Virus record (IMG/VR): IMGVR_UViG_3300024581_003792
Span: 127,006-191,005 of that record
Length of the DNA stretch: 64,000 nt
Source: a virus
Strand: one strand, 5' to 3'
Part shown: one piece after another, positions 1,485 through 54,315 of the stretch
Layout: the number at the start of each line of letters is the position of its first letter
How positions within the stretch are numbered: position 1 is the stretch's first letter
Notes under the pieces: generated by a model
The model's input: only the letters and a program-made list of their open reading frames with translations
Told to the model about the DNA's origin: nothing
Databases searched by the model: none
Position numbers and translations under genes: made by a program

Positions 1485-2027
1485 ATGAGCTTAGGTAACA
1501 AAGAGACTTTACAATTTATAAAAGATGGCGATGTTTGCGTTGAAGTTGGCGTCTGGCAAGGTGATTTATCTCGCCAGATAGCTCAGTTACCAATTTCTAG
1601 ACTTTATTTAATCGATCCTTGGCAATCAATCAATGATGTTGAAGGCAGGCTTCATAATACTGACCAGAAAAAGCTTGATGATATCTACAACAAAGTCCGC
1701 CGCCGGTTTTTCTTCAACAAGAAAGTTGAATTGCTTCGTAAATTTTCTGCTGATGCAATGTCTGACATTCAAGACGGTTCGGTTGATTGGATATATATAG
1801 ACGGAAATCATAGCTATGAGTTCGTAAAAGAAGACCTGAACGGCTGGTGGCCAAAACTTAAAAGCGGGGGTTATTTATGTGGCGATGATTATATCGACGG
1901 CAAATACCAAGTTGAGCAACTACAATTCGGAATTGTCCAAGCTGTTGATGAGTTTCGAGAAGAAAAAGAGTCTGAAATCTCTTATTCGGAGCTAATCAAA
2001 GATCAGTTTGTATTTCAAAAGAAGTGA
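1485..2027 (+). CDS. Class I SAM-dependent methyltransferase (Methyltransf_24-like)
   Basis: VEVGVWQGDLS, LIDPW, DWIYIDGNHSYE, GGYLCGDDY. Confidence 0.85.
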   Translation: MSLGNKETLQFIKDGDVCVEVGVWQGDLSRQIAQLPISRLYLIDPWQSINDVEGRLHNTDQKKLDDIYNKVRRRFFFNKKVELLRKFSADAMSDIQDGSVDWIYIDGNHSYEFVKEDLNGWWPKLKSGGYLCGDDYIDGKYQVEQLQFGIVQAVDEFREEKESEISYSELIKDQFVFQKK

Positions 2028-2611
2028 TTTCCCACTCTCTGCCTTGCATTTTCGTGCATATTCCAAAATGTGCGGGCAGTTCAATAAACCAACAGTTAGA
2101 ATTAAAATCTATGGGGTTTTCGGGGCATGCCCCAATGTCATATCACTCCAAACATTCTGATTATTTTTCATTTACTTTTATTCGCAATCCATATGATCGG
2201 GTAGTTTCGGCGTATAAATATTTTCGCAAACTGAAACCAGGGCATCGTTGGTATAAAAGAAACAGCATAATATCTGATGCCGCTAACGAAATGGAGTTTG
2301 GTGAATTTGTGCATCACATACCTGATTTTATGAAGTTAATGAAGAGGGAGGAAGGTTCTTTTGAATCTGGCATTCACTTTCAACCGTTTTATTATTTTAT
2401 TGATCAGCCAATTGATTTCATTGGTCGCTTTGAAAATATTCAACAAGATTATGCTGCGATCTTATCTCATTTAAAACTTTCCCCCAAGCCCCTTCGCAAA
2501 ACCAACTCAACAAATAACTCAAATTACAGACAATTATACATAGAAGAAACAAAGAACCAAGTGTATAATATATACCAAGAAGATATTAAAAAATATAATT
2601 ATCAATTTTAA
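2024..2611 (+). CDS. Sulfotransferase (Sulfotransfer_2 family), ST1
   Basis: 5'-PSB motif FVHIPKCAGSSI and 3'-PB motif IRNPYDRVVSAY; FIGRFEN; GTG start. Confidence 0.85.
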   Translation: MISHSLPCIFVHIPKCAGSSINQQLELKSMGFSGHAPMSYHSKHSDYFSFTFIRNPYDRVVSAYKYFRKLKPGHRWYKRNSIISDAANEMEFGEFVHHIPDFMKLMKREEGSFESGIHFQPFYYFIDQPIDFIGRFENIQQDYAAILSHLKLSPKPLRKTNSTNNSNYRQLYIEETKNQVYNIYQEDIKKYNYQF

Positions 2612-38611: not shown

Positions 38612-38640
38612 TTGACAGTTTTTTGTTTTTCTGCTATTTT
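38612..38640 (+). promoter_or_regulatory. Sigma70-type promoter
   Basis: TTGACA-17-TATTTT with extended TG; ATG 8 nt after the -10. Confidence 0.75.
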
Positions 38641-38647
38641 ATATAGC

Positions 38648-39184
38648 ATGAACTTATTATATAAGACCCGAACATATTTAGTTGGGCATATGCAATATCT
38701 TAGTGGTCGCGATTGGCGCCAAGAGGTGACTGAAAAACTTGAGCCCCTTAATATCACTTGCTTTAATCCTTACGAGAAACCATTCATGAAAGACGTTGAA
38801 GAAGACGAAGCTTCACGCCAAGAAATGGAAACATGGATGAAAACAAAACAATATGATCGCGTAACTGAAAAAATGAAAACTGTTCGTGCATATGATTTAA
38901 ATCTTGTGGATCGCAGTGATTTTATTGTAGCTCATTTAGTTCCTGATGTTGCAAGTTGGGGAAGTGCCGAAGAAATCGTCACGGCTGTACGCATGAAAAA
39001 ACCTATTTTTATTAGTATGGAAGGCGGCAAATCAAAAACACCTCTTTGGATGCTAGGAATGTTGCCCCATAAATTTATTTATAATAATCTTGACGAAGTC
39101 ATAGAAATGTTGTATGCTATAGATAATGGCAGCAAACCAATTGACTCAGATAGATGGAGATTACTAAGAAAGGAATATAGATAA
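38648..39184 (+). CDS. Nucleoside 2-deoxyribosyltransferase-like / nucleotide N-glycosidase
   Basis: YLVG.M, DWR, CFNP, DL..VDRSDFIVA, WGSAEE catalytic-Glu-like motif. Confidence 0.7.
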   Translation: MNLLYKTRTYLVGHMQYLSGRDWRQEVTEKLEPLNITCFNPYEKPFMKDVEEDEASRQEMETWMKTKQYDRVTEKMKTVRAYDLNLVDRSDFIVAHLVPDVASWGSAEEIVTAVRMKKPIFISMEGGKSKTPLWMLGMLPHKFIYNNLDEVIEMLYAIDNGSKPIDSDRWRLLRKEYR

Positions 39185-41103: not shown

Positions 41104-42384
41104 ATGAAACCTAACGAATTAAACAGAAGAGAATTTATTGCTAGAGCCGCCAAATCTTACTTGGGGGTAGGCTTGATGCCGCTAGTTGGATCTTACATCC
41201 ATGATAATGCATATGCCCTTACTCCAGGTGCTCGCCCCGCAAAAGCACGGCATGTTATTTATTTAAATATGGCTGGAGCAATGTCGCATCTAGACACTCT
41301 TGACCCGAAACCTCAAAGCCCCGATGTTCAAGGTCCGGTTGAAGCTATACAAACAAGCGTTGATAATGTATTTCTTTCCGAAAATTTGCCTACAGTTGCT
41401 AGGCATATGCACAATGCAGCTATTGTTCGCTCAGTTACCAGTAATCAAGGCGCACATGAACAGGCTAGTTATCTTATGCACACAAGCTACCAGAAGCGCG
41501 GCACTATTGTACACCCGACTTTTGGCAGTTGGGTTGCAAAACTTTCTGGCTCGATCAACAGAACTATTCCTGCGAATGTCAAGATCGGCGGCGGAGGAGG
41601 CGGAGCTGGCTTCTTAGAATCTCGCTACGGAGCTTTACCCTTAAGAAACCCCAAGGCAGGATTAGCCAACAGCTCGATGGCTGATTATCTAGACAGCACA
41701 CAATTTAATGATAGAATAAAAGCTGCAGAACAATTAAACGCAGTATTTAGTGAACAATATAATCAAAAACAAATTCGTGCTTATACTGATCTATATAAAG
41801 ATGCAGTAAAATTAATGCAGAGTGAAGATTTAAAAGCATTTGATATTTCTGCTGAACCAGAAGCTATGACTGAACTTTATGGCGCTAGTAATTTCGGACA
41901 AGGATGTTTACTAGCAAGAAGATTAATCGAGAATAAAGTTCGCTATGTTGAAGTAACTCGTGGAGGGTGGGATACACATGACAACAACTTTGATCGCGTG
42001 GCTGCTAATTGCGCGGATATTGACAAAGCCTTAGGCGCATTACTGTTTGATCTAGAAATGCGGGGCTTACTTGATGAAACACTTGTTGTTTTGACCTCAG
42101 AGTTCGGAAGAACTCCAAAGATTAACCCAAGAGACGGCAGAGATCATTGGCCAAAAGCTTTCTCAGCATTTTTTGCAGGAGGAGCTGTAAAAGGCGGTAC
42201 AATATACGGTCAAAGCGATGATAAAGGTATGGAAGTTGAACAAAATCCAGTTAAGCCTGAAGATTTGAACGCAACAATAGCGTATGCGCTTGGCCTGTCA
42301 CTCAACGATATACATTATTCTCCGTCTGGGCGACCATTTCAAATTGCTCATAAAGGTGAGCCAATCTTAGATATACTTTCTTAA
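41104..42384 (+). CDS. DUF1501-family protein with Tat signal
   Basis: NRREFI twin-arginine signal, GAMSHLDTLDPKP, GGWDTH, SEFGRTP, RDHWP. Confidence 0.88.
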   Translation: MKPNELNRREFIARAAKSYLGVGLMPLVGSYIHDNAYALTPGARPAKARHVIYLNMAGAMSHLDTLDPKPQSPDVQGPVEAIQTSVDNVFLSENLPTVARHMHNAAIVRSVTSNQGAHEQASYLMHTSYQKRGTIVHPTFGSWVAKLSGSINRTIPANVKIGGGGGGAGFLESRYGALPLRNPKAGLANSSMADYLDSTQFNDRIKAAEQLNAVFSEQYNQKQIRAYTDLYKDAVKLMQSEDLKAFDISAEPEAMTELYGASNFGQGCLLARRLIENKVRYVEVTRGGWDTHDNNFDRVAANCADIDKALGALLFDLEMRGLLDETLVVLTSEFGRTPKINPRDGRDHWPKAFSAFFAGGAVKGGTIYGQSDDKGMEVEQNPVKPEDLNATIAYALGLSLNDIHYSPSGRPFQIAHKGEPILDILS

Positions 42385-42392
42385 ACAAAGAA

Positions 42393-42420
42393 GCCCCCTA
42401 TTGCTAGGGGGCCTTACTTT
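42393..42420. terminator. Bidirectional intrinsic terminator between convergent genes
   Basis: GCCCCCTA-TTGC-TAGGGGGC hairpin with A-rich left and T-rich right flanks; a second hairpin GTTAGC-TTTC-GCTAAC at 42427-42442. Confidence 0.8.
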
Positions 42421-42447: not shown

Positions 42448-43254
42448 TTATTCGGGGCGTTTGCCTAAAGGTTTTCCGTCTTGGCCAATTTCGCCAGCTC
42501 TAATTTTTGTAGCAGATACTTCTTGTAGTTCTTTGCTTAACTCAAGTTGTTCGATATTGTAACCAACACCTCTGCCATAAAACACATCCATGATATTCGG
42601 TAGTTCAACAACTTTAATTTTATTGCCAAATTCTACGCATGCAGAATGAATCTCTGCTTTTACTTTATCAAAGTCATATGGATTTTTTTCATCGATTCCA
42701 CCCACATCTCTTAGCGCTATACAGCACTGCCCAGTTCTTTTGATTGCTTCTGCAACTAAAGTTTTATGTCCAATATGAAAAGGTTGATATCTACCTATGA
42801 GAAGCGCGGTTGGAGCTTGATTATCCCATTTTTCTGTCTCGTTTAATTTTTCTACGACTTTTTCTGCCCATTCATCTGCTGTGCCTTCAGTTAATCTAAC
42901 ATCATAGTTAAGTGGGCGCTCAAACATTTTATTAGTATCCTCGTATCTGCCCTCCATGATTCTATCTACCCATACTACAAAGTCGGCGCCAAAAGCTTTT
43001 CGTGTTTCTTGTGTCGGGCATACGAAGTCGGCGATAACATATCCTCCACCTAGCTTAGCCCAATCGCAAAGCTTCCCCATTCTTGTGGCATGCGCTAATC
43101 TATCTTCTGGTGAAAATCCTAACTCTGAATATATATCCTGCCTAACTGCATCTGCATTAAACCATGCGGCGTTAAGTTTCCGAACTAAGATTTCGGCTAA
43201 TGTTGTCTTTCCTGAGCCAGGAAGACCCATAATGAGAATTTTTCTTTTAGTCAT
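42448..43254 (-). CDS. APS-kinase-like P-loop kinase fused to an HxGH nucleotidyltransferase
   Basis: GLPGSGKTTLA, NADAVR, DFVCP, then GRYQPFHIGH and VSATKIR; ATG 43254 preferred. Confidence 0.78.
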   Translation of the reverse strand: MTKRKILIMGLPGSGKTTLAEILVRKLNAAWFNADAVRQDIYSELGFSPEDRLAHATRMGKLCDWAKLGGGYVIADFVCPTQETRKAFGADFVVWVDRIMEGRYEDTNKMFERPLNYDVRLTEGTADEWAEKVVEKLNETEKWDNQAPTALLIGRYQPFHIGHKTLVAEAIKRTGQCCIALRDVGGIDEKNPYDFDKVKAEIHSACVEFGNKIKVVELPNIMDVFYGRGVGYNIEQLELSKELQEVSATKIRAGEIGQDGKPLGKRPE

Positions 43255-43259
43255 GAAAT

Positions 43260-43268
43260 ATATTACAT
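43260..43268 (-). promoter_or_regulatory. GTGTA-class variant (ATG-TAATAT)
   Basis: One mismatch; ATG 6 nt downstream on the minus strand. Confidence 0.4.
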
Positions 43269-43295
43269 CTAAAATCATTTTTGAAGAAAAAAAAC

Positions 43296-43324
43296 TTGAC
43301 TTTCAATTCAATATCTAGTATACT
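43296..43324 (+). promoter_or_regulatory. Sigma70-type promoter
   Basis: TTGACT-17-TATACT preceded by an A-tract (UP-like). Confidence 0.85.
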
Positions 43325-46099: not shown

Positions 46100-46306
46100 A
46101 TGGACGACGAATTTGAAGAACCAACAGGCCCAAGGGACTACGACGAGCAGACAGATGCATTTCGTTTTGACTTAGATGATCTAGTCGAGCGGTACTTGCA
46201 TGAGTTCGACATAAACACAATCACTATGATTGGTGCGCTACAAGAAAAAATTCAAGAATTAGTAAATGATGGAAGTTTTGAATCTGATATAGAAATTGAT
46301 GAATAA
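46100..46306 (+). CDS. Small acidic hypothetical protein
   Basis: 68-aa D/E-rich ORF. Confidence 0.7.
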   Translation: MDDEFEEPTGPRDYDEQTDAFRFDLDDLVERYLHEFDINTITMIGALQEKIQELVNDGSFESDIEIDE

Positions 46307-46871
46307 TATTATTATAGGTGTTACAGGCTTTGCTAGATCTGGCAAAGATACTTTTTTTCAAGAAAGCTCTAGATTATTATCTAAGGCTAAATGCCATAGG
46401 TATGCCTTCGCGGACGCACTAAAAGAGGAGTCTGATGATTTCTTAAAAAAACATGTTGGAATTTCTGCGTTCACAGAAGAAGCAGAGGACAAAGAATTAA
46501 TTAGGCCATTCTTAGTGACTTATGGTACGCATTTAAGGCGCAAGCTTGACCCGAACTGCTGGATAAAGAAAGTAGAGCAAGCCATTGAAGATAACCACAA
46601 AGACTCTAAGGACAATTTTATTTTTATAACTGATGTTAGGTTTGAAAACGAGGCTCAATGGGTTAAATCTATTGGAGGTATCATCACCAAAGTAACTCGA
46701 GAGGGTGTCAAGGCCGCCAACCAAGATGAACATGTTCAGTCAGCTCTGATTGAGAAACATGTAGACCTTCATATTATGTGGCCTACTTATAAGCCAGGAG
46801 ACATCAAAGAATCCCACGCATTACTAAAACCAGTTTTGAAAAAAAATTTCCGCAACTACGTTGAGTATTAG
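46299..46871 (+). CDS. Deoxynucleoside monophosphate kinase (T4 gp1-like)
   Basis: IIGVTGFARSGKDT, FADALKE, R.FL..YGT..RR, ITDVRFENE. Confidence 0.85.
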   Translation: MNNIIIGVTGFARSGKDTFFQESSRLLSKAKCHRYAFADALKEESDDFLKKHVGISAFTEEAEDKELIRPFLVTYGTHLRRKLDPNCWIKKVEQAIEDNHKDSKDNFIFITDVRFENEAQWVKSIGGIITKVTREGVKAANQDEHVQSALIEKHVDLHIMWPTYKPGDIKESHALLKPVLKKNFRNYVEY

Positions 46872-48858: not shown

Positions 48859-49253
48859 AAAAAGTAGCAATCAGCGGTTATTTTGACCCAATACATATTG
48901 GTCACTTAGAATATATTCGGTTGGCGCGTGAACTTGGAGATTATTTAGTGGTTATCGTGAATAATGACAAGCAGGCAGTTCTTAAAAAGGGAAAGTCTTT
49001 TATGTGTGAAGATGATAGACTTCAAATAGTCTCACAAATTAAAGGTGTTGATGAAGCAATATTATCTATTGATGAAGATAAAACTGTATGCAAGACGCTT
49101 GATTTAATTAAGCCCGACATTTTCGCCAATGGTGGAGATCGTAGCAATTCAGAGATTCCAGAATTTAAAATATGCAAAGAAAATGGCACTCAAGTTGTTG
49201 ATGGACTCGGAAGTAAGATCCGATCATCTTCAGAACTTACAGGCATTAAATGA
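48855..49253 (+). CDS. Cytidylyltransferase-family nucleotidyltransferase (TagD/RfaE-II-like)
   Basis: SGYFDPIHIGH, LVVIVNND, FANGGDR, KIRSSS. Confidence 0.85.
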   Translation: MKKVAISGYFDPIHIGHLEYIRLARELGDYLVVIVNNDKQAVLKKGKSFMCEDDRLQIVSQIKGVDEAILSIDEDKTVCKTLDLIKPDIFANGGDRSNSEIPEFKICKENGTQVVDGLGSKIRSSSELTGIK

Positions 49254-49759
49254 ACCTATATAACTTGCCCACTCATGCTAAAAGCCCTCGAATCGTTAAC
49301 GCAGTCATTGAAATTGAAGAGGGTTCAAAAAACAAATATGAATATGACGGAGATCTGGGGGTATTCATGTATGATAGATGTCTCAATTCTGCTATGGTTT
49401 ATCCCGCAAGTTATGGTTTTATTCCAGGAACTTTGTGCGAAGATGGTGACCCTTTGGATATAATGGTGATCAGCCCCGAACCTATCAAAAGAGCAACAGT
49501 TCTTGAGGCAAAAGTTTTAGGAGTTCTCGACATGGAAGATGAGGGCGACAAAGATTACAAAATTATAGCCGTGCCAAATTTTTATACTAGAAAATATAGT
49601 AACATCAAAGATGTGGAAGATAGTTTTCTCAAAATCGCAAAGAATTTCTTCGCTCACTATAAGGATTTAAGTATGAGCGGTGATCGCGTTAAAGTATTTG
49701 AGTGGCATCACAAGCAATACGCCTACGATATCATCGATAATAGACTTACCAACAAATAA
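49250..49759 (+). CDS. ppa: Family I inorganic pyrophosphatase
   Basis: IEI..GS.NKYEYD, YPASYGFIP.T, DGDPLD, D.KII, FF..YK. Confidence 0.92.
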   Translation: MNLYNLPTHAKSPRIVNAVIEIEEGSKNKYEYDGDLGVFMYDRCLNSAMVYPASYGFIPGTLCEDGDPLDIMVISPEPIKRATVLEAKVLGVLDMEDEGDKDYKIIAVPNFYTRKYSNIKDVEDSFLKIAKNFFAHYKDLSMSGDRVKVFEWHHKQYAYDIIDNRLTNK

Positions 49760-50918: not shown

Positions 50919-51764
50919 ATGAAATGCAAGATACCAGTACTACTACACATACCTAAAAATGCAGGAAGTTATATAATTCAGATTTTGACCAAATATTTCA
51001 TTAGGCTTAAAAAAAAAGCATTTAATTTAAGAGTCAGAAGAGTGACGGTAACAACTCGAGACTCAACCTTGACTGTTTTTTGTCATTTTTTGACGGATTA
51101 TTGGGTTTCAGATCAACATATGAAACGTGTTGCGGAAAGAGCGAGCTCTTGTAGTTTAAGTACTTTTTTGACTTATTTAAAAAACGAACAGTTAGAAGTT
51201 TTAAGTATAGTTGTAGAGCCTATCGGTATGTCAGACATAAGAGAAGGATGTTTTTTGGCTTACAAAATTATTGATTTATGTGAAGCTGAACCTTTTAATT
51301 TCACCATATTCAGGGATTCTTTTTCTCGACAGCAATCTTTGTATTACTATTTAACTGGTGATGCCTCGTCTCATGAACTTTCTCACCATTCTATTAAAGA
51401 GAATTCTTTTATTGATTATATAAATTCGCCTTCACTTGAGGATTCCTGGCTTATACGGATTCTTTCTGGGGTTAAATCAACCACTAAATTAAATAAATAT
51501 TGGTTTAAAATTGCCTCTAATTTCTTAGATTCTAATAATTTCTTTATCGTAGATATTAATGATACAGATTATGCAATAAAATATGTACTTGAAAAATGCT
51601 TTGATGATCCTATTGAAGCCATTGATCTAGAGCAACCCTTTTATAATAGTACAAGTGCAAAAAATAAAATCACAATCCAAGATCTAGAAGAAGGGACAAA
51701 ACAAAAATTTTTAAAACATACATATTGGGACAGAAAATTATGGGAAAGATATTGCGGGGAATAG
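50919..51764 (+). CDS. Divergent sulfotransferase, ST2
   Basis: LLHIPKNAGS, TIFRDSFSRQQSLYYY, D..LWE C-terminus. Confidence 0.7.
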   Translation: MKCKIPVLLHIPKNAGSYIIQILTKYFIRLKKKAFNLRVRRVTVTTRDSTLTVFCHFLTDYWVSDQHMKRVAERASSCSLSTFLTYLKNEQLEVLSIVVEPIGMSDIREGCFLAYKIIDLCEAEPFNFTIFRDSFSRQQSLYYYLTGDASSHELSHHSIKENSFIDYINSPSLEDSWLIRILSGVKSTTKLNKYWFKIASNFLDSNNFFIVDINDTDYAIKYVLEKCFDDPIEAIDLEQPFYNSTSAKNKITIQDLEEGTKQKFLKHTYWDRKLWERYCGE

Positions 51765-51845: not shown

Positions 51846-52535
51846 ATGAATGTAATATCATATTTTAATCCAATTGTAGGTGAAAAATTTTCAAAAGAAA
51901 GTGGCGAGCTTATTTCTATCTGGAAACAATCCTGGATTCAACAAGGATGGAGTCCCATAGTATTAAATGAAACTTGTGCGCAAAAAAATGATTTATACCA
52001 AAAATTAAGCTTCAATAATCCTAATTCGAACTTTTATAAAGAAAATCCTGCCGGTTCATTTAAGTATAATCGTTGCTGTTACTTGCGACTTCTTGCATAC
52101 TGTCAATATGTGAAAGAAAATGGCCCTACTTTATATTGCGACTATGATGTCATCAATTATGGACTGCGTTCAGATATTTTGAATAAAATTGATAAAAATT
52201 CAGTCCTATGCGAGCAAAGATCGGTTATCTATCTTGATGAATTTGGAGCTAGAGATATAGAGAGAGTTTTAATTCAATGCGAAAATACAGATAAATTAGA
52301 ATGGCATCACCGCAATGACATGCGCCTAATCGAACATGAAACCACAGTCTTCAAATTATTAATTAATAAAGAAAAACAATATATTTACTGCTGTAGTGCT
52401 TACACAGATAGAGATCATATTTGTCCATTAGTTCACTATAATGGAGGTTGCTATTTAAGAGGTGCACCAAAACATTTATCTAGGTCAGAAGTAGTATGGG
52501 CTCATGGAAGGTTAAAAAATGCTAATATCTCATAA
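51846..52535 (+). CDS. Putative GT-A glycosyltransferase
   Basis: WKQSW..QGW.P.VL, CYLRLLAY, YCDYDVIN (DxD). Confidence 0.55.
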   Translation: MNVISYFNPIVGEKFSKESGELISIWKQSWIQQGWSPIVLNETCAQKNDLYQKLSFNNPNSNFYKENPAGSFKYNRCCYLRLLAYCQYVKENGPTLYCDYDVINYGLRSDILNKIDKNSVLCEQRSVIYLDEFGARDIERVLIQCENTDKLEWHHRNDMRLIEHETTVFKLLINKEKQYIYCCSAYTDRDHICPLVHYNGGCYLRGAPKHLSRSEVVWAHGRLKNANIS

Positions 52536-53223
52536 ACATAAATTCATCACAATTGATATCCCTAAAACTGGAACAAGATCGTTTCGCGAAAGTTTGATTC
52601 CGCTTGGAGTAATTGATGAATTTGGAGTACCAAATTTAAAAGCAGAATTTTATCAACACGACGGTGCAATTCGCGCAAAAAAACAATTCGTAAAAAACGG
52701 CTGGAACTGGAATGAGTATTTTAAATTCACCATTGTTCGCAATCCATGGCAAAGATATTTTAGTTTCTTTAAATATTTCAAGCAAAAATCAGAAAGATAT
52801 GTAAATTCAAAATTAATGGGAGCTTATTTAAACTCCAAATCCAATGTCTGGCAACATTCTGGCTTATACCAAAACTGGATCAACCAAGAAATCAATGACT
52901 GCCGACAAGCATTTGATCTTTTTTCATCAAGTGGTAACGACCAAACTGTATTAAAAAACATTATATTAAACAACAACTCGCAAGATTCATATTTCTGCGA
53001 TGAAAGTGGAAAAATTATAGTAGATCATATTGCTGAGTTTGAGAACTTACGAAATGAATTTGTTTTATTGTGTGATAAACTCGGTATTCAAGCTCCAACC
53101 CTTCAACATGGCAACAAAAGCGCAAATTCACTCAACATGCACGACATCTACAACCAAGAATTAATTGATCTCGTAGCGCAAAAAGAAAAGAGCGTAATAG
53201 AATTAAAAGGATATAAATATTAA
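52519..53223 (+). CDS. Sulfotransferase, ST3
   Basis: IDIPKTGTRS, VRNPWQRYFS, EFENL, E....KGYKY. Confidence 0.82.
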   Translation: MLISHKHKFITIDIPKTGTRSFRESLIPLGVIDEFGVPNLKAEFYQHDGAIRAKKQFVKNGWNWNEYFKFTIVRNPWQRYFSFFKYFKQKSERYVNSKLMGAYLNSKSNVWQHSGLYQNWINQEINDCRQAFDLFSSSGNDQTVLKNIILNNNSQDSYFCDESGKIIVDHIAEFENLRNEFVLLCDKLGIQAPTLQHGNKSANSLNMHDIYNQELIDLVAQKEKSVIELKGYKY

Positions 53224-53227
53224 ATAA

Positions 53228-53281
53228 ATGATGATAATATATACATATTACGAAAACATCGGCAGAGAAATTGGAGAGTAA
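53228..53281 (+). pseudogene. 17-codon remnant ORF (MMIIYTYYENIGREIGE*)
   Basis: Fills the ST3-ST4 gap, TAATG-coupled to ST4; resembles the N-terminus of 51846..52535 and/or the EFGE* cassette end. Confidence 0.4.
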
Positions 53282-54315
53282 TGAACAACAATAAGCAACC
53301 GGGGATTGACACCAAATCTCTACAATTCATACATATCACAAAAAATGCAGGGACGTCCATAGAGAGAGTAGGTAAACTCATGCCTGGTACAAACTGGGGC
53401 AAAGAATGTGATTGGTTTAATCGTATGTATTTTAGACGCATTCCAAAACCAGACAACGTAAAACGCATATATGATATAATTTGGCATTTGAATGACAAAT
53501 TCGAAAAATGGCTAAATGATACATTGCAAATAATATTGCCATACGAAATAAAGGTAAAAAATGTCAAGGTAACTTACCTTAATACTAATTACCAGTCAAT
53601 TGATCACGATCTCACTCTGTCTAGTTATTTTTATCTCGATAATTTTATAGAATTTTTAAAATTATGGGGAATAGATTCTTTATATCACGACGATTTACTA
53701 AACATTAAAGATTCTTTAATAAATCATGATGGAGATATTGCCTTGACATTATGTGAATACAATAATATTCCGATAGAAGATTATATATATGATATATGGC
53801 ACGTCCCATTATCTTTAGCAGATGACAACTGTCTAGAATATATTCAACAACATCATGATTTATTTTGTGTGATTCGTAACCCATACACCAGAGTCTTGAG
53901 CGAATATTACTGCAAATGGAATATGTTTAACACACAAACGCTCGGCAATAAAACCGACACATTGGATGCTCATGTGTTCAACAGTAACTTAAAACGTATA
54001 TTACAAGCTGTTGAACAATCCCTTTCGGCTGGAAAAATTCTCACACACTGGGCGCCTCAGAGCATGTATTACATGAAAAACGGTCAACGGATCATGCCTG
54101 AAAATAATGTGTTGAGATTTGAATCATTAAAGTCTGATTTTGCTCAACTATGCAAAAGATACTACCTACCTTACGAATCATCTTACCTGAAAAAACACAA
54201 CAAGTGTGAGGCTGAAAACAGATTCAGAGCGAAGGATATCGAAAGAGAAAATCTCGACATGATAAATCATATTTACAGAGAAGACTTTAAGTACAGTGAT
54301 TATAAAACAATTTAA
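53281..54315 (+). CDS. Sulfotransferase with large insertion, ST4
   Basis: FIHITKNAGTSIE, IRNPYTRVLSEY, HWAPQ, LRFESL, Y.EDF. Confidence 0.8.
   Translation: MNNNKQPGIDTKSLQFIHITKNAGTSIERVGKLMPGTNWGKECDWFNRMYFRRIPKPDNVKRIYDIIWHLNDKFEKWLNDTLQIILPYEIKVKNVKVTYLNTNYQSIDHDLTLSSYFYLDNFIEFLKLWGIDSLYHDDLLNIKDSLINHDGDIALTLCEYNNIPIEDYIYDIWHVPLSLADDNCLEYIQQHHDLFCVIRNPYTRVLSEYYCKWNMFNTQTLGNKTDTLDAHVFNSNLKRILQAVEQSLSAGKILTHWAPQSMYYMKNGQRIMPENNVLRFESLKSDFAQLCKRYYLPYESSYLKKHNKCEAENRFRAKDIERENLDMINHIYREDFKYSDYKTI

Follow-up and report, generated by a model that had tools for sequence, protein, structure and literature searches.

A phage kinase-nucleotidyltransferase fusion as a candidate minimal PAPS synthase

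A stretch of viral DNA of 64,000 nucleotides, positions 127,006 to 191,005 of the IMG/VR record IMGVR_UViG_3300024581_003792 and called here the window, carries a gene for a small two-domain protein, P0001, which is a candidate synthase of the sulfate donor 3'-phosphoadenosine 5'-phosphosulfate (PAPS). The source is a large, uncultured marine phage whose record of 213,830 bp is rated complete by CheckV. Its DnaB-like protein is less than 27% identical to every phage record in the collection, and the phage therefore has no close cultured relative. The gene occupies 42448..43254 on the minus strand, with its stop codon at 42448-42450, and encodes 268 amino acids (MTKRKILIMGLPGSGKTT...GRYQPFHIGH...VSATKIR). 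A start at the in-frame ATG further upstream (43278) would lengthen the protein to 276 residues, but 43254 is preferred since the homologues begin at the M-x-x-K-I-L-I-M-G position. The initial annotation had described an N-terminal domain resembling kinases of adenosine 5'-phosphosulfate (APS) and a C-terminal HxGH domain; the open reading frame (ORF) lies exactly at these coordinates, and Pfam places PF01583 and PF01467 on the two parts. PHROG 10255, named only 'kinase', matches the protein over its full length (E 5e-53). An AlphaFold2 model built on a 48-sequence alignment reached a mean confidence (pLDDT) of 93.4. Together with the many homologous clusters described below, these results go far beyond chance. 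The evidence for reading P0001 as a PAPS synthase is computational throughout.

The kinase domain comprises residues 1-140 (42835..43254, minus strand). Pfam APS_kinase (PF01583) matches residues 6-87 with an E-value of 7.5e-12 and 46 bits, against a cut-off of 21.1. The Walker A motif GxxGxGK(S/T) is present as the P-loop GLPGSGKT, in which G10, G15 and K16 are invariant among 48 family members. It is followed by NADAVR, which takes the place of DGDxxR in APS kinases, and by LGFSPEDR...H. NADAVR and LGFSPEDRLAH align to DGDxVR and LGFSxEDRxxN of 2GKS, 7YQ0, 2YVU and PAPSS1. Of the family-conserved residues, D35 and R38 stand opposite the Asp and Arg of DGDxxR in APS kinases, F47 opposite the Phe of LGFS, R52 opposite the Arg of EDR and Q/H55 opposite the Asn; we take these to be residues that contact APS. 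A further conserved family motif, ADFVCPT, aligns with the corresponding APS-kinase motif. The family profile matches about 25 APS kinases in the PDB with E-values from 7e-17 to 1e-8. Structural comparison leads to the same group of enzymes, the best 46 Foldseek matches of the P0001 model in the PDB being all APS kinases or APS-kinase-like domains of bifunctional sulfate-activating enzymes. Their E-values reach down to 2e-9, and the target-length TM-scores range from 0.22 to 0.76, with about 0.55-0.76 for single-domain targets. On account of this homology and of the genomic context described below, the kinase domain very probably makes PAPS, and the protein supplies it.

The remaining 128 residues (141-268; 42451..42834, minus strand) form a compact nucleotidyltransferase (NT) domain. 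Its motifs are GRYQPFHIGH, VRD, NP, PNI, YGR(D/G)VGY and SATKIR, and Pfam CTP_transf_like (PF01467) matches residues 152-176 with 25.5 bits against a cut-off of 21. H160 and H163 are invariant in the alignments A1 and A2, R252 is invariant in A1 and conserved to at least 90% in A2, and S247 is nearly invariant. The motif YGR(D/G)VGY is specific to the family, and its Gly227 and Arg228 are invariant. When compared with the PDB, a profile of 51 NT sequences matches archaeal nicotinamide mononucleotide adenylyltransferases (NMNATs; MJ0541, E 2e-12) and NadM over the first ~75 residues only, the match to MJ0541 and MTH150 stopping at about residue 84 of 132. The domain folded alone gave a pLDDT of 94.2, and Foldseek relates it to NadM, NMNAT and the phosphopantetheine adenylyltransferase PPAT over ~77 residues. 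In VIA-align, NMNAT (Z 10.6) and PPAT (Z 10.2) rank first and NadR chains reach Z 8.6-9.2. The ATP sulfurylase Sat of T. thermophilus (1V47) ranks under NMNAT and PPAT, with Z 8.4 over 119 residues; the yeast, human and plant enzymes reach Z 6.5-6.9 and the sulfurylase domain of PAPSS1 Z 6.9. The Sat family model PF01747 has no match in P0001, and in the ESM Atlas the matches are viral 'cytidyltransferase' clusters only. The NT domain thus belongs to the archaeal NMNAT/PPAT lineage and is a homologue of Sat only at the superfamily level.

Such relationships bring to mind a NadR-like enzyme of NAD salvage, in which the kinase would act on nicotinamide riboside and the NT domain would turn nicotinamide mononucleotide (NMN) into NAD, for example against host defences that deplete NAD. 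GRxQPFHxGH and SxTxxR are indeed motifs of archaeal-type NMNATs, one automatic JGI name reads 'nicotinamide riboside kinase/phosphopantetheine adenylyltransferase', and in the Xylella phage Bacata the gene just upstream of the fusion is annotated COG3236, which we take to be the NADAR family. However, the kinase is APS-kinase-like in sequence and structure rather than similar to nicotinamide riboside kinases (RNK). The NCBIfam models for archaeal-type NMNAT (TIGR01527, 20.3 bits against a cut-off of 181.2) and NadR (TIGR01526, 20 bits against 341, on the P-loop only) score far too low, and the NMNAT profile match ends after ~75 residues, ahead of the part that we assume to be the NMN pocket. 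The recurrent genomic partners, moreover, are sulfotransferases, CysQ and DUF2061, a domain that is also found fused to CysN, and not NAD genes. NAD salvage is accordingly a highly improbable function for this protein.

The phage carries an extensive set of genes for sulfation. Sulfotransfer_2 gives 10 matches in 9 ORFs of the genome, of which 7 lie in the window and 2 elsewhere. Those in the window, all on the plus strand, are a Sulfotransfer_2-like sulfotransferase at 2024..2611, a putative PAPS consumer, a second one at 52519..53223, a protein with a C-terminal Sulfotransfer_2-like part at 53281..54315, and a four-gene array at 56721..59147 (56721-57284, 57288-57899, 57903-58514 and 58518-59147). 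The PAPS-binding motifs PKxGxxS and RNPxDRxxS are intact in the phage sulfotransferases. An inorganic pyrophosphatase is encoded at 49250..49759 on the plus strand (PF00719, E 1.9e-48; NF002317, E 1.9e-45 and below the cut-off of that model). A CysQ-type 3'(2'),5'-bisphosphate nucleotidase follows on the same strand at 61345..62145 (PF00459, E 2.6e-50; TIGR01331, 228.7 bits against a cut-off of 228.8). A search of the whole record found no Sat, no gene of the PAPS_reduct family (CysD/CysH) and no second APS-kinase match. P0001 is therefore the only candidate for donor synthesis in a phage in which the consumers, the removal of the by-product and the removal of pyrophosphate (PPi) are all present. 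Between 5 and 10 sulfotransferase matches were also obtained for each of the five viral relatives closest to this phage (71-94% identity). The ORF at 50919-51764 had no match in a genome search with PF03567 or in the NCBIfam scan. CysQ was also considered as a universal partner of the fusion and rejected, as among 45 fusion-bearing viral records it is common only to this phage and two close relatives (G001 and G002).

From these genes a two-step route can be proposed. The C-terminal NT domain would first move AMP from ATP to sulfate, yielding APS and PPi. Its acceptor pocket appears truncated in comparison with NMNAT, and Arg228 of YGR(D/G)VGY is proposed to bind a small anion; the shortened acceptor side and the invariant arginine would fit an acceptor of this kind. 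The conversion of ATP and sulfate into APS and PPi is unfavourable, and the pyrophosphatase would pull it forward by removing PPi. In the second step, which is well supported by homology, the N-terminal kinase would phosphorylate the 3'-OH of APS with a second ATP. The resulting PAPS would be consumed by the seven sulfotransferases of the window and the two encoded elsewhere, and the by-product of sulfotransfer, 3'-phosphoadenosine 5'-phosphate, would be cleared by CysQ. In many other phages the enzyme is paired with a small two-transmembrane DUF2061 protein. The favoured explanation, which we hold to be the likelier one with some reserve, is that P0001 is a self-sufficient minimal PAPS synthase supplying the sulfotransferases of the phage. 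The formation of APS from sulfate by the NT domain, as a candidate sulfate adenylyltransferase, is likewise probable.

A related chemistry with other substrates can also be envisaged. The protein could resemble a coenzyme A (CoA) synthase, in which a PPAT-like NT product such as dephospho-CoA is then 3'-phosphorylated, or it could activate another anion (selenate, phosphonate or thiosulfate) to give an analogue of PAPS. PPAT is structurally as close to the NT domain as NMNAT is, the phosphonate cytidylyltransferase Fom1 (5X3D) is found among the structural neighbours, and APS kinase and dephospho-CoA kinase both phosphorylate an adenosine 3'-OH. On the other hand, no CoA or phosphonate genes are found among the annotated neighbours, the neighbouring sulfotransferases carry canonical PAPS-binding motifs, and CysQ and the DUF2061-CysN fusion point to sulfate. 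Such activities are quite unlikely.

The association with sulfotransferases extends well beyond this phage. In Bradyrhizobium sp. Pha-3 and in two loci of metagenome-assembled genomes (MAGs; L015 and L030), genes combining tetratricopeptide repeats (TPR) with Sulfotransfer_3 lie directly beside the family gene, and homologues of this TPR+Sulfotransfer_3 cluster flank it in B. uaiense. A Sulfotransfer_2 gene adjoins the family gene in a further locus (L014). Among viruses, Sulfotransfer_2-like genes occur in 23 of 83 fusion loci. With both sulfotransferase models combined, a sulfotransferase-like gene is found within 6 kb in 26 of the 83 fused loci and within 5 kb in 15 of 23 loci in which the two domains are encoded separately. 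In a separate phage group a small Sulfotransfer_1/3-type gene stands just upstream of the split kinase, as confirmed by Pfam in three loci. A series of viral contigs (L190-L203) carries sulfotransferase, kinase and NT as separate neighbours, mostly consecutive, among arrays of 2-oxoglutarate-Fe(II) oxygenase-like genes and a carbamoyltransferase. The co-occurrence with sulfotransferases that the initial annotation had named as a check is thus strongly evident in this phage, in its close relatives, in other phage lineages and in bacteria. In cellular loci the neighbours are variable apart from the sulfotransferases, and BLAST found neither CysD nor CysN adjoining the family gene in any fetched locus.

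A second recurrent partner is DUF2061, a two-transmembrane protein of 67-70 residues. In 53 of 81 viral loci (L112-L174), whose neighbours otherwise vary, its gene immediately follows the fusion on the downstream side (e.g., L114:6747-6950), and tandem duplicates occur. DUF2061 is fused to kinase-only forms of the family (P0301-P0306) and also to a bona fide CysN (P0305; TIGR02034, 545 bits), encoded beside a CysD-like gene of the PAPS_reduct family. Judging from these arrangements, DUF2061 would be a so far uncharacterised part of sulfate activation that sits in the membrane and serves as an anchor or in uptake. DUF2061 was not found in the phage of the window. Another membrane domain, DUF4118, which we take to be that of the KdpD sensor kinases, is fused to either side of the kinase in metagenomic proteins, once to the whole fusion (P0122) and otherwise in P0172, P0187, P0196, P0197, P0215 and P0222. 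It is also carried by some bacterial kinase-only forms, and these fusions suggest an action at the membrane.

The family is large and varied in its gene organization. At E<1e-30 it includes 144 representative clusters, and its presence is confirmed in at least 575 viral stretches. Full-length homologues with 50-60% identity are encoded by many Alphaproteobacteria, including Bradyrhizobium, Inquilinus, Hyphomicrobiaceae, Xanthobacteraceae, Acetobacteraceae and Pelagibacteraceae, and full-length homologues are also found in MAGs of Saccharibacteria and Melainabacteria. In a quick tree, three rows of which are long-branch artefacts, phage and cellular clades are interleaved and the clade of the window is purely viral. 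The fusion occurs in both domain orders, P0137 having the NT domain first and the kinase second. A stand-alone NT gene has a stand-alone kinase gene adjacent or a few genes away in 18 of 23 viral loci, and in loci of SAR11 single-cell genomes (L080-L084) the two domains are encoded as two adjacent ORFs. Kinase-only relatives are known in the phages phiRSL1 and RsoM2USA and in bacteria.

The phyletic pattern bears on whether the NT domain takes part in sulfate activation at all. APS kinase requires a source of APS, and CysN or Sat is present in 11 of 12 genomes with kinase-only forms vs 23 of 49 genomes with the fusion (Fisher p 0.008; p 0.07 without the SAR11 single-cell genomes). Among the genomes without CysN and Sat, 15 of 16 tested also had no PAPS_reduct match of any kind. 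Sulfotransfer_3 genes occur in 14 of 28 fusion-carrying genomes without CysN. Among the carriers without CysN and Sat are a 4.0-Mb assembly of an Acetobacteraceae member (G053), which was deposited as 'chromosome: 1', and a 0.7-Mb MAG of Saccharibacteria with 5 sulfotransferase matches. A sample of 301 alphaproteobacterial genomes, requested at >=95% completeness, contained 7 carriers of the family (about 2%). All seven have a Sulfotransfer_3 gene, located within 10 kb of the family gene in four, and four of the seven have neither CysN nor Sat. Twelve alphaproteobacterial assemblies of 2.3-5.6 Mb (G050-G054, G056, G059, G061, G062, G065, G066 and G071) carry the fusion and show no CysN, Sat or PAPS_reduct match; the explanation is either incomplete assembly or a lack of sulfate assimilation along the known route in these organisms.

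In the most serious alternative only the kinase half serves sulfation, using APS made by the host. The NT domain would then catalyze an unrelated or accessory adenylyl transfer, with NMN, nicotinic acid mononucleotide, a cofactor precursor or a phospho-compound as acceptor, or it would be a nucleotide-binding regulatory domain. The existence of kinase-only relatives, the presence of CysN or Sat in 23 of the 49 carrier genomes, and the nearness of the NT domain to NMNAT, NadM and PPAT in sequence and fold, with no specific similarity to Sat, would all agree with this. Nevertheless, a known source of APS is missing from the phage and from at least four genomes of the >=95% sample, the coupling of the two domains persists through fusion, reversal and splitting, and kinase-only forms occur almost only where CysN or Sat is present. 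A purely regulatory role is disfavoured by the complete or nearly complete conservation of the catalytic His residues of HxGH and the Arg of SxTxxR, and nothing in the profile alignments corresponds to the half of NMNAT that we assume to hold the nicotinamide pocket. A contribution of the kinase alone therefore seems unlikely, though it is the most probable of the rivals.

Several observations weigh against a self-sufficient PAPS synthase. In the kinase, the RDPKGLY lid of APS kinases has no counterpart, as the initial annotation had noticed, and the PF01583 match spans only profile positions 5-91 of 152. Its position is taken by a shortened RYEDTN (RYxDTNxxFExP in the family), and in a weak alignment Y104 and FERP of P0001 stand opposite the FTGID...YEKP segment of PAPSS1. 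The APS-kinase model TIGR00455 gives 40 bits, far under its cut-off of 138.7. As for the NT domain, its closest relatives are NMNAT, NadM and PPAT and not Sat. This had been remarked in the initial annotation, and the profile search against the PDB, VIA-align and HHalign agree on it. For HHalign, five Sat domains were fetched and their QxRNP and GRDHAG motifs confirmed; the NT profile aligned to the resulting five-sequence profile over only 23 columns around HxxH, with a probability of 34%. A likeness of YGR(D/G)VGY to the GRDHAG loop of Sat, which had been considered, was discarded, as the comparison aligned HxxH only. Because the nearest relatives are not Sat, sulfate as the acceptor has to be argued from context and phyletics.

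Further points of this kind concern the genomes. About half of the carriers also have CysDN and thus do not depend on the NT domain for APS. Of the genomes in which CysN and Sat were scored as absent, many are MAGs or single-cell genomes of unreported completeness, and in some genomes cysD, cysN and a second PAPS_reduct gene are clustered, so that one missing contig could remove all of them. In SAR11, AprAB might provide APS. Neither Sulfotransfer_2 nor Sulfotransfer_3 has a match on the G053 chromosome. The whole-record search, which used only the Sulfotransfer_2 model and a profile from the sulfotransferases of this phage, detected no sulfotransferase in two fusion-bearing viral records (G032, 100% complete; G025, 90%) or in the complete genomes of the Xylella phages Salvo and Bacata. 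One genome negative in that search (G015, 100% complete) has a locus, L129, that was positive in a later jackhmmer count.

Nevertheless, four independent lines tie the family to sulfate activation: the sulfotransferase neighbours, the coupling of the two domains, DUF2061 and the phyletic pattern. The stripped-down sulfate-activating enzyme suggested by the initial annotation is supported by the co-occurrence with sulfotransferases and by the carriers without CysN and Sat. The ATP sulfurylase activity we infer only from context, from the fusion and splitting of the two genes, and from the argument of an 'orphan APS kinase'. As the NT domain is not a reduced Sat, it would, if a sulfurylase, be an analogue recruited from the NMNAT/PPAT branch.

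Comparison with known systems shows what such an enzyme would share and what would be its own. The animal PAPS synthases PAPSS1/2 have the same order of domains, with the APS kinase N-terminal and an adenylyltransferase of the HxxH superfamily C-terminal, and the same two-step chemistry is proposed here. Their kinase domains are structural neighbours, 2OFW and 2OFX standing at the top of the Foldseek list. The resemblance pointed out by the initial annotation holds for this order and not for the second domain, which is not of the Sat type: the PAPSS1 chain 1X6V_B has 630 residues vs 268 for P0001, whose NT domain of ~128 residues belongs to the NMNAT/PPAT lineage and has no Pfam ATP-sulfurylase match, and whose kinase lid is shortened. 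CysC (PF01583, TIGR00455) has the fold, the P-loop and the (D/N)xDxxR, LGFSxEDR and SP/CP-type motifs in common with P0001. Its profile positions 92-152, which include the lid, are replaced in the family by the shorter RYxDTNxxFExP, and the family kinase is instead always linked to an NT domain, DUF2061 or DUF4118.

The archaeal-type NMNATs (MJ0541/MTH150 and the N-domain of NadM) share GRFQPFHxGH, NPF, SxTxxR and the first beta-alpha-beta-alpha-beta half with the NT domain, which lacks ~25-50 of their residues, presumably those of the nicotinamide-ribose pocket and the C-terminal helices. Unlike them, the P0001 family has YGR(D/G)VGY and sulfation genes as genomic partners. Sat (PF01747) belongs to the same HxxH nucleotidyltransferase superfamily and catalyzes the reaction proposed here, but its QxRNP and GRDHAG motifs cannot be aligned to the NT domain. 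The same reaction is also that of CysDN, a PP-loop ATPase with a GTPase whose architecture is unrelated. NadR likewise combines an HxGH adenylyltransferase with a P-loop kinase, and its chains are structural neighbours of the NT domain. Its domain order is opposite, however, and P0001 has no helix-turn-helix domain and a kinase of the APS-kinase rather than the RNK type.

Around P0001 the window shows the following local features. The gene is the sole minus-strand gene within a long plus-strand block. It ends at 42448, convergent with a DUF1501 gene that ends at 42384. Between the two, a consensus scan detected a GC-rich hairpin with T tracts on both strands (42391..42414), which probably terminates transcription in both directions. 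Promoter-like sigma-70 sites ahead of the start codon, on the minus strand (43257..43306), were recognized as consensus matches only, TTGAAA-18-AAAAAT ending at 43277 and TTCAAA-17-TATATT ending at 43257; the consensus scan showed no obvious Shine-Dalgarno sequence. A nucleoside 2-deoxyribosyltransferase-like gene (38612-39184) and a dNMP-kinase-like gene (46296-46871) flank the region and have no evident link to sulfation.

Other neighbourhoods of the family deserve mention. In Salvo and Bacata, Casjensviridae of ~56 kb, a MazG-like pyrophosphatase and an annotated cysteine dioxygenase are encoded near the fusion. In several Pelagibacteraceae loci (L048 and L081-L084) the family gene stands beside genes for a GCV_T-family protein, which brings DmdA to mind, an MTHFR-like protein and an enoyl-CoA hydratase. 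In the locus L045 its neighbours are a Cys/Met pyridoxal phosphate enzyme, a transporter of the major facilitator superfamily and a TENA/THI-4 protein. The neighbours in all these loci are possible organosulfur contexts.

PAPS synthesis is textbook chemistry, and to our knowledge two types of sulfurylase are known, Sat and CysDN. In the openly accessible literature nothing relevant was found on the family, on the function of DUF2061 or on PAPS synthesis by phages. The chemistry and the domain order are thus known; new are the non-orthologous nature of the proposed sulfurylase module and the uncharacterised family and partner. We lean slightly towards the view that, with the NT domain, the NMNAT/PPAT branch has given rise to a third class of ATP sulfurylase, not orthologous to the other two. 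With about 250-270 residues, its fusion to the lid-less kinase would be the smallest PAPS synthase known to be self-sufficient, often accompanied by DUF2061, spread by phages and used by Alphaproteobacteria, SAR11 and the candidate phyla radiation for sulfation without CysDN or Sat. If so, an NMNAT-derived sulfurylase of 128 residues would be a new enzymatic solution, and the fusion would offer a very small, portable PAPS-generating module for enzymatic sulfation. An unannotated family of considerable size, present on at least 575 viral contigs and in about 2% of the alphaproteobacterial species sampled and covered by PHROG 10255, would receive a function, and DUF2061 would obtain its first functional context. 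Extensive phage sulfation programmes would be explained in hosts unable to activate sulfate, among which we count SAR11, and a genome in which sulfate activation is scored as absent could nevertheless belong to a producer of PAPS.

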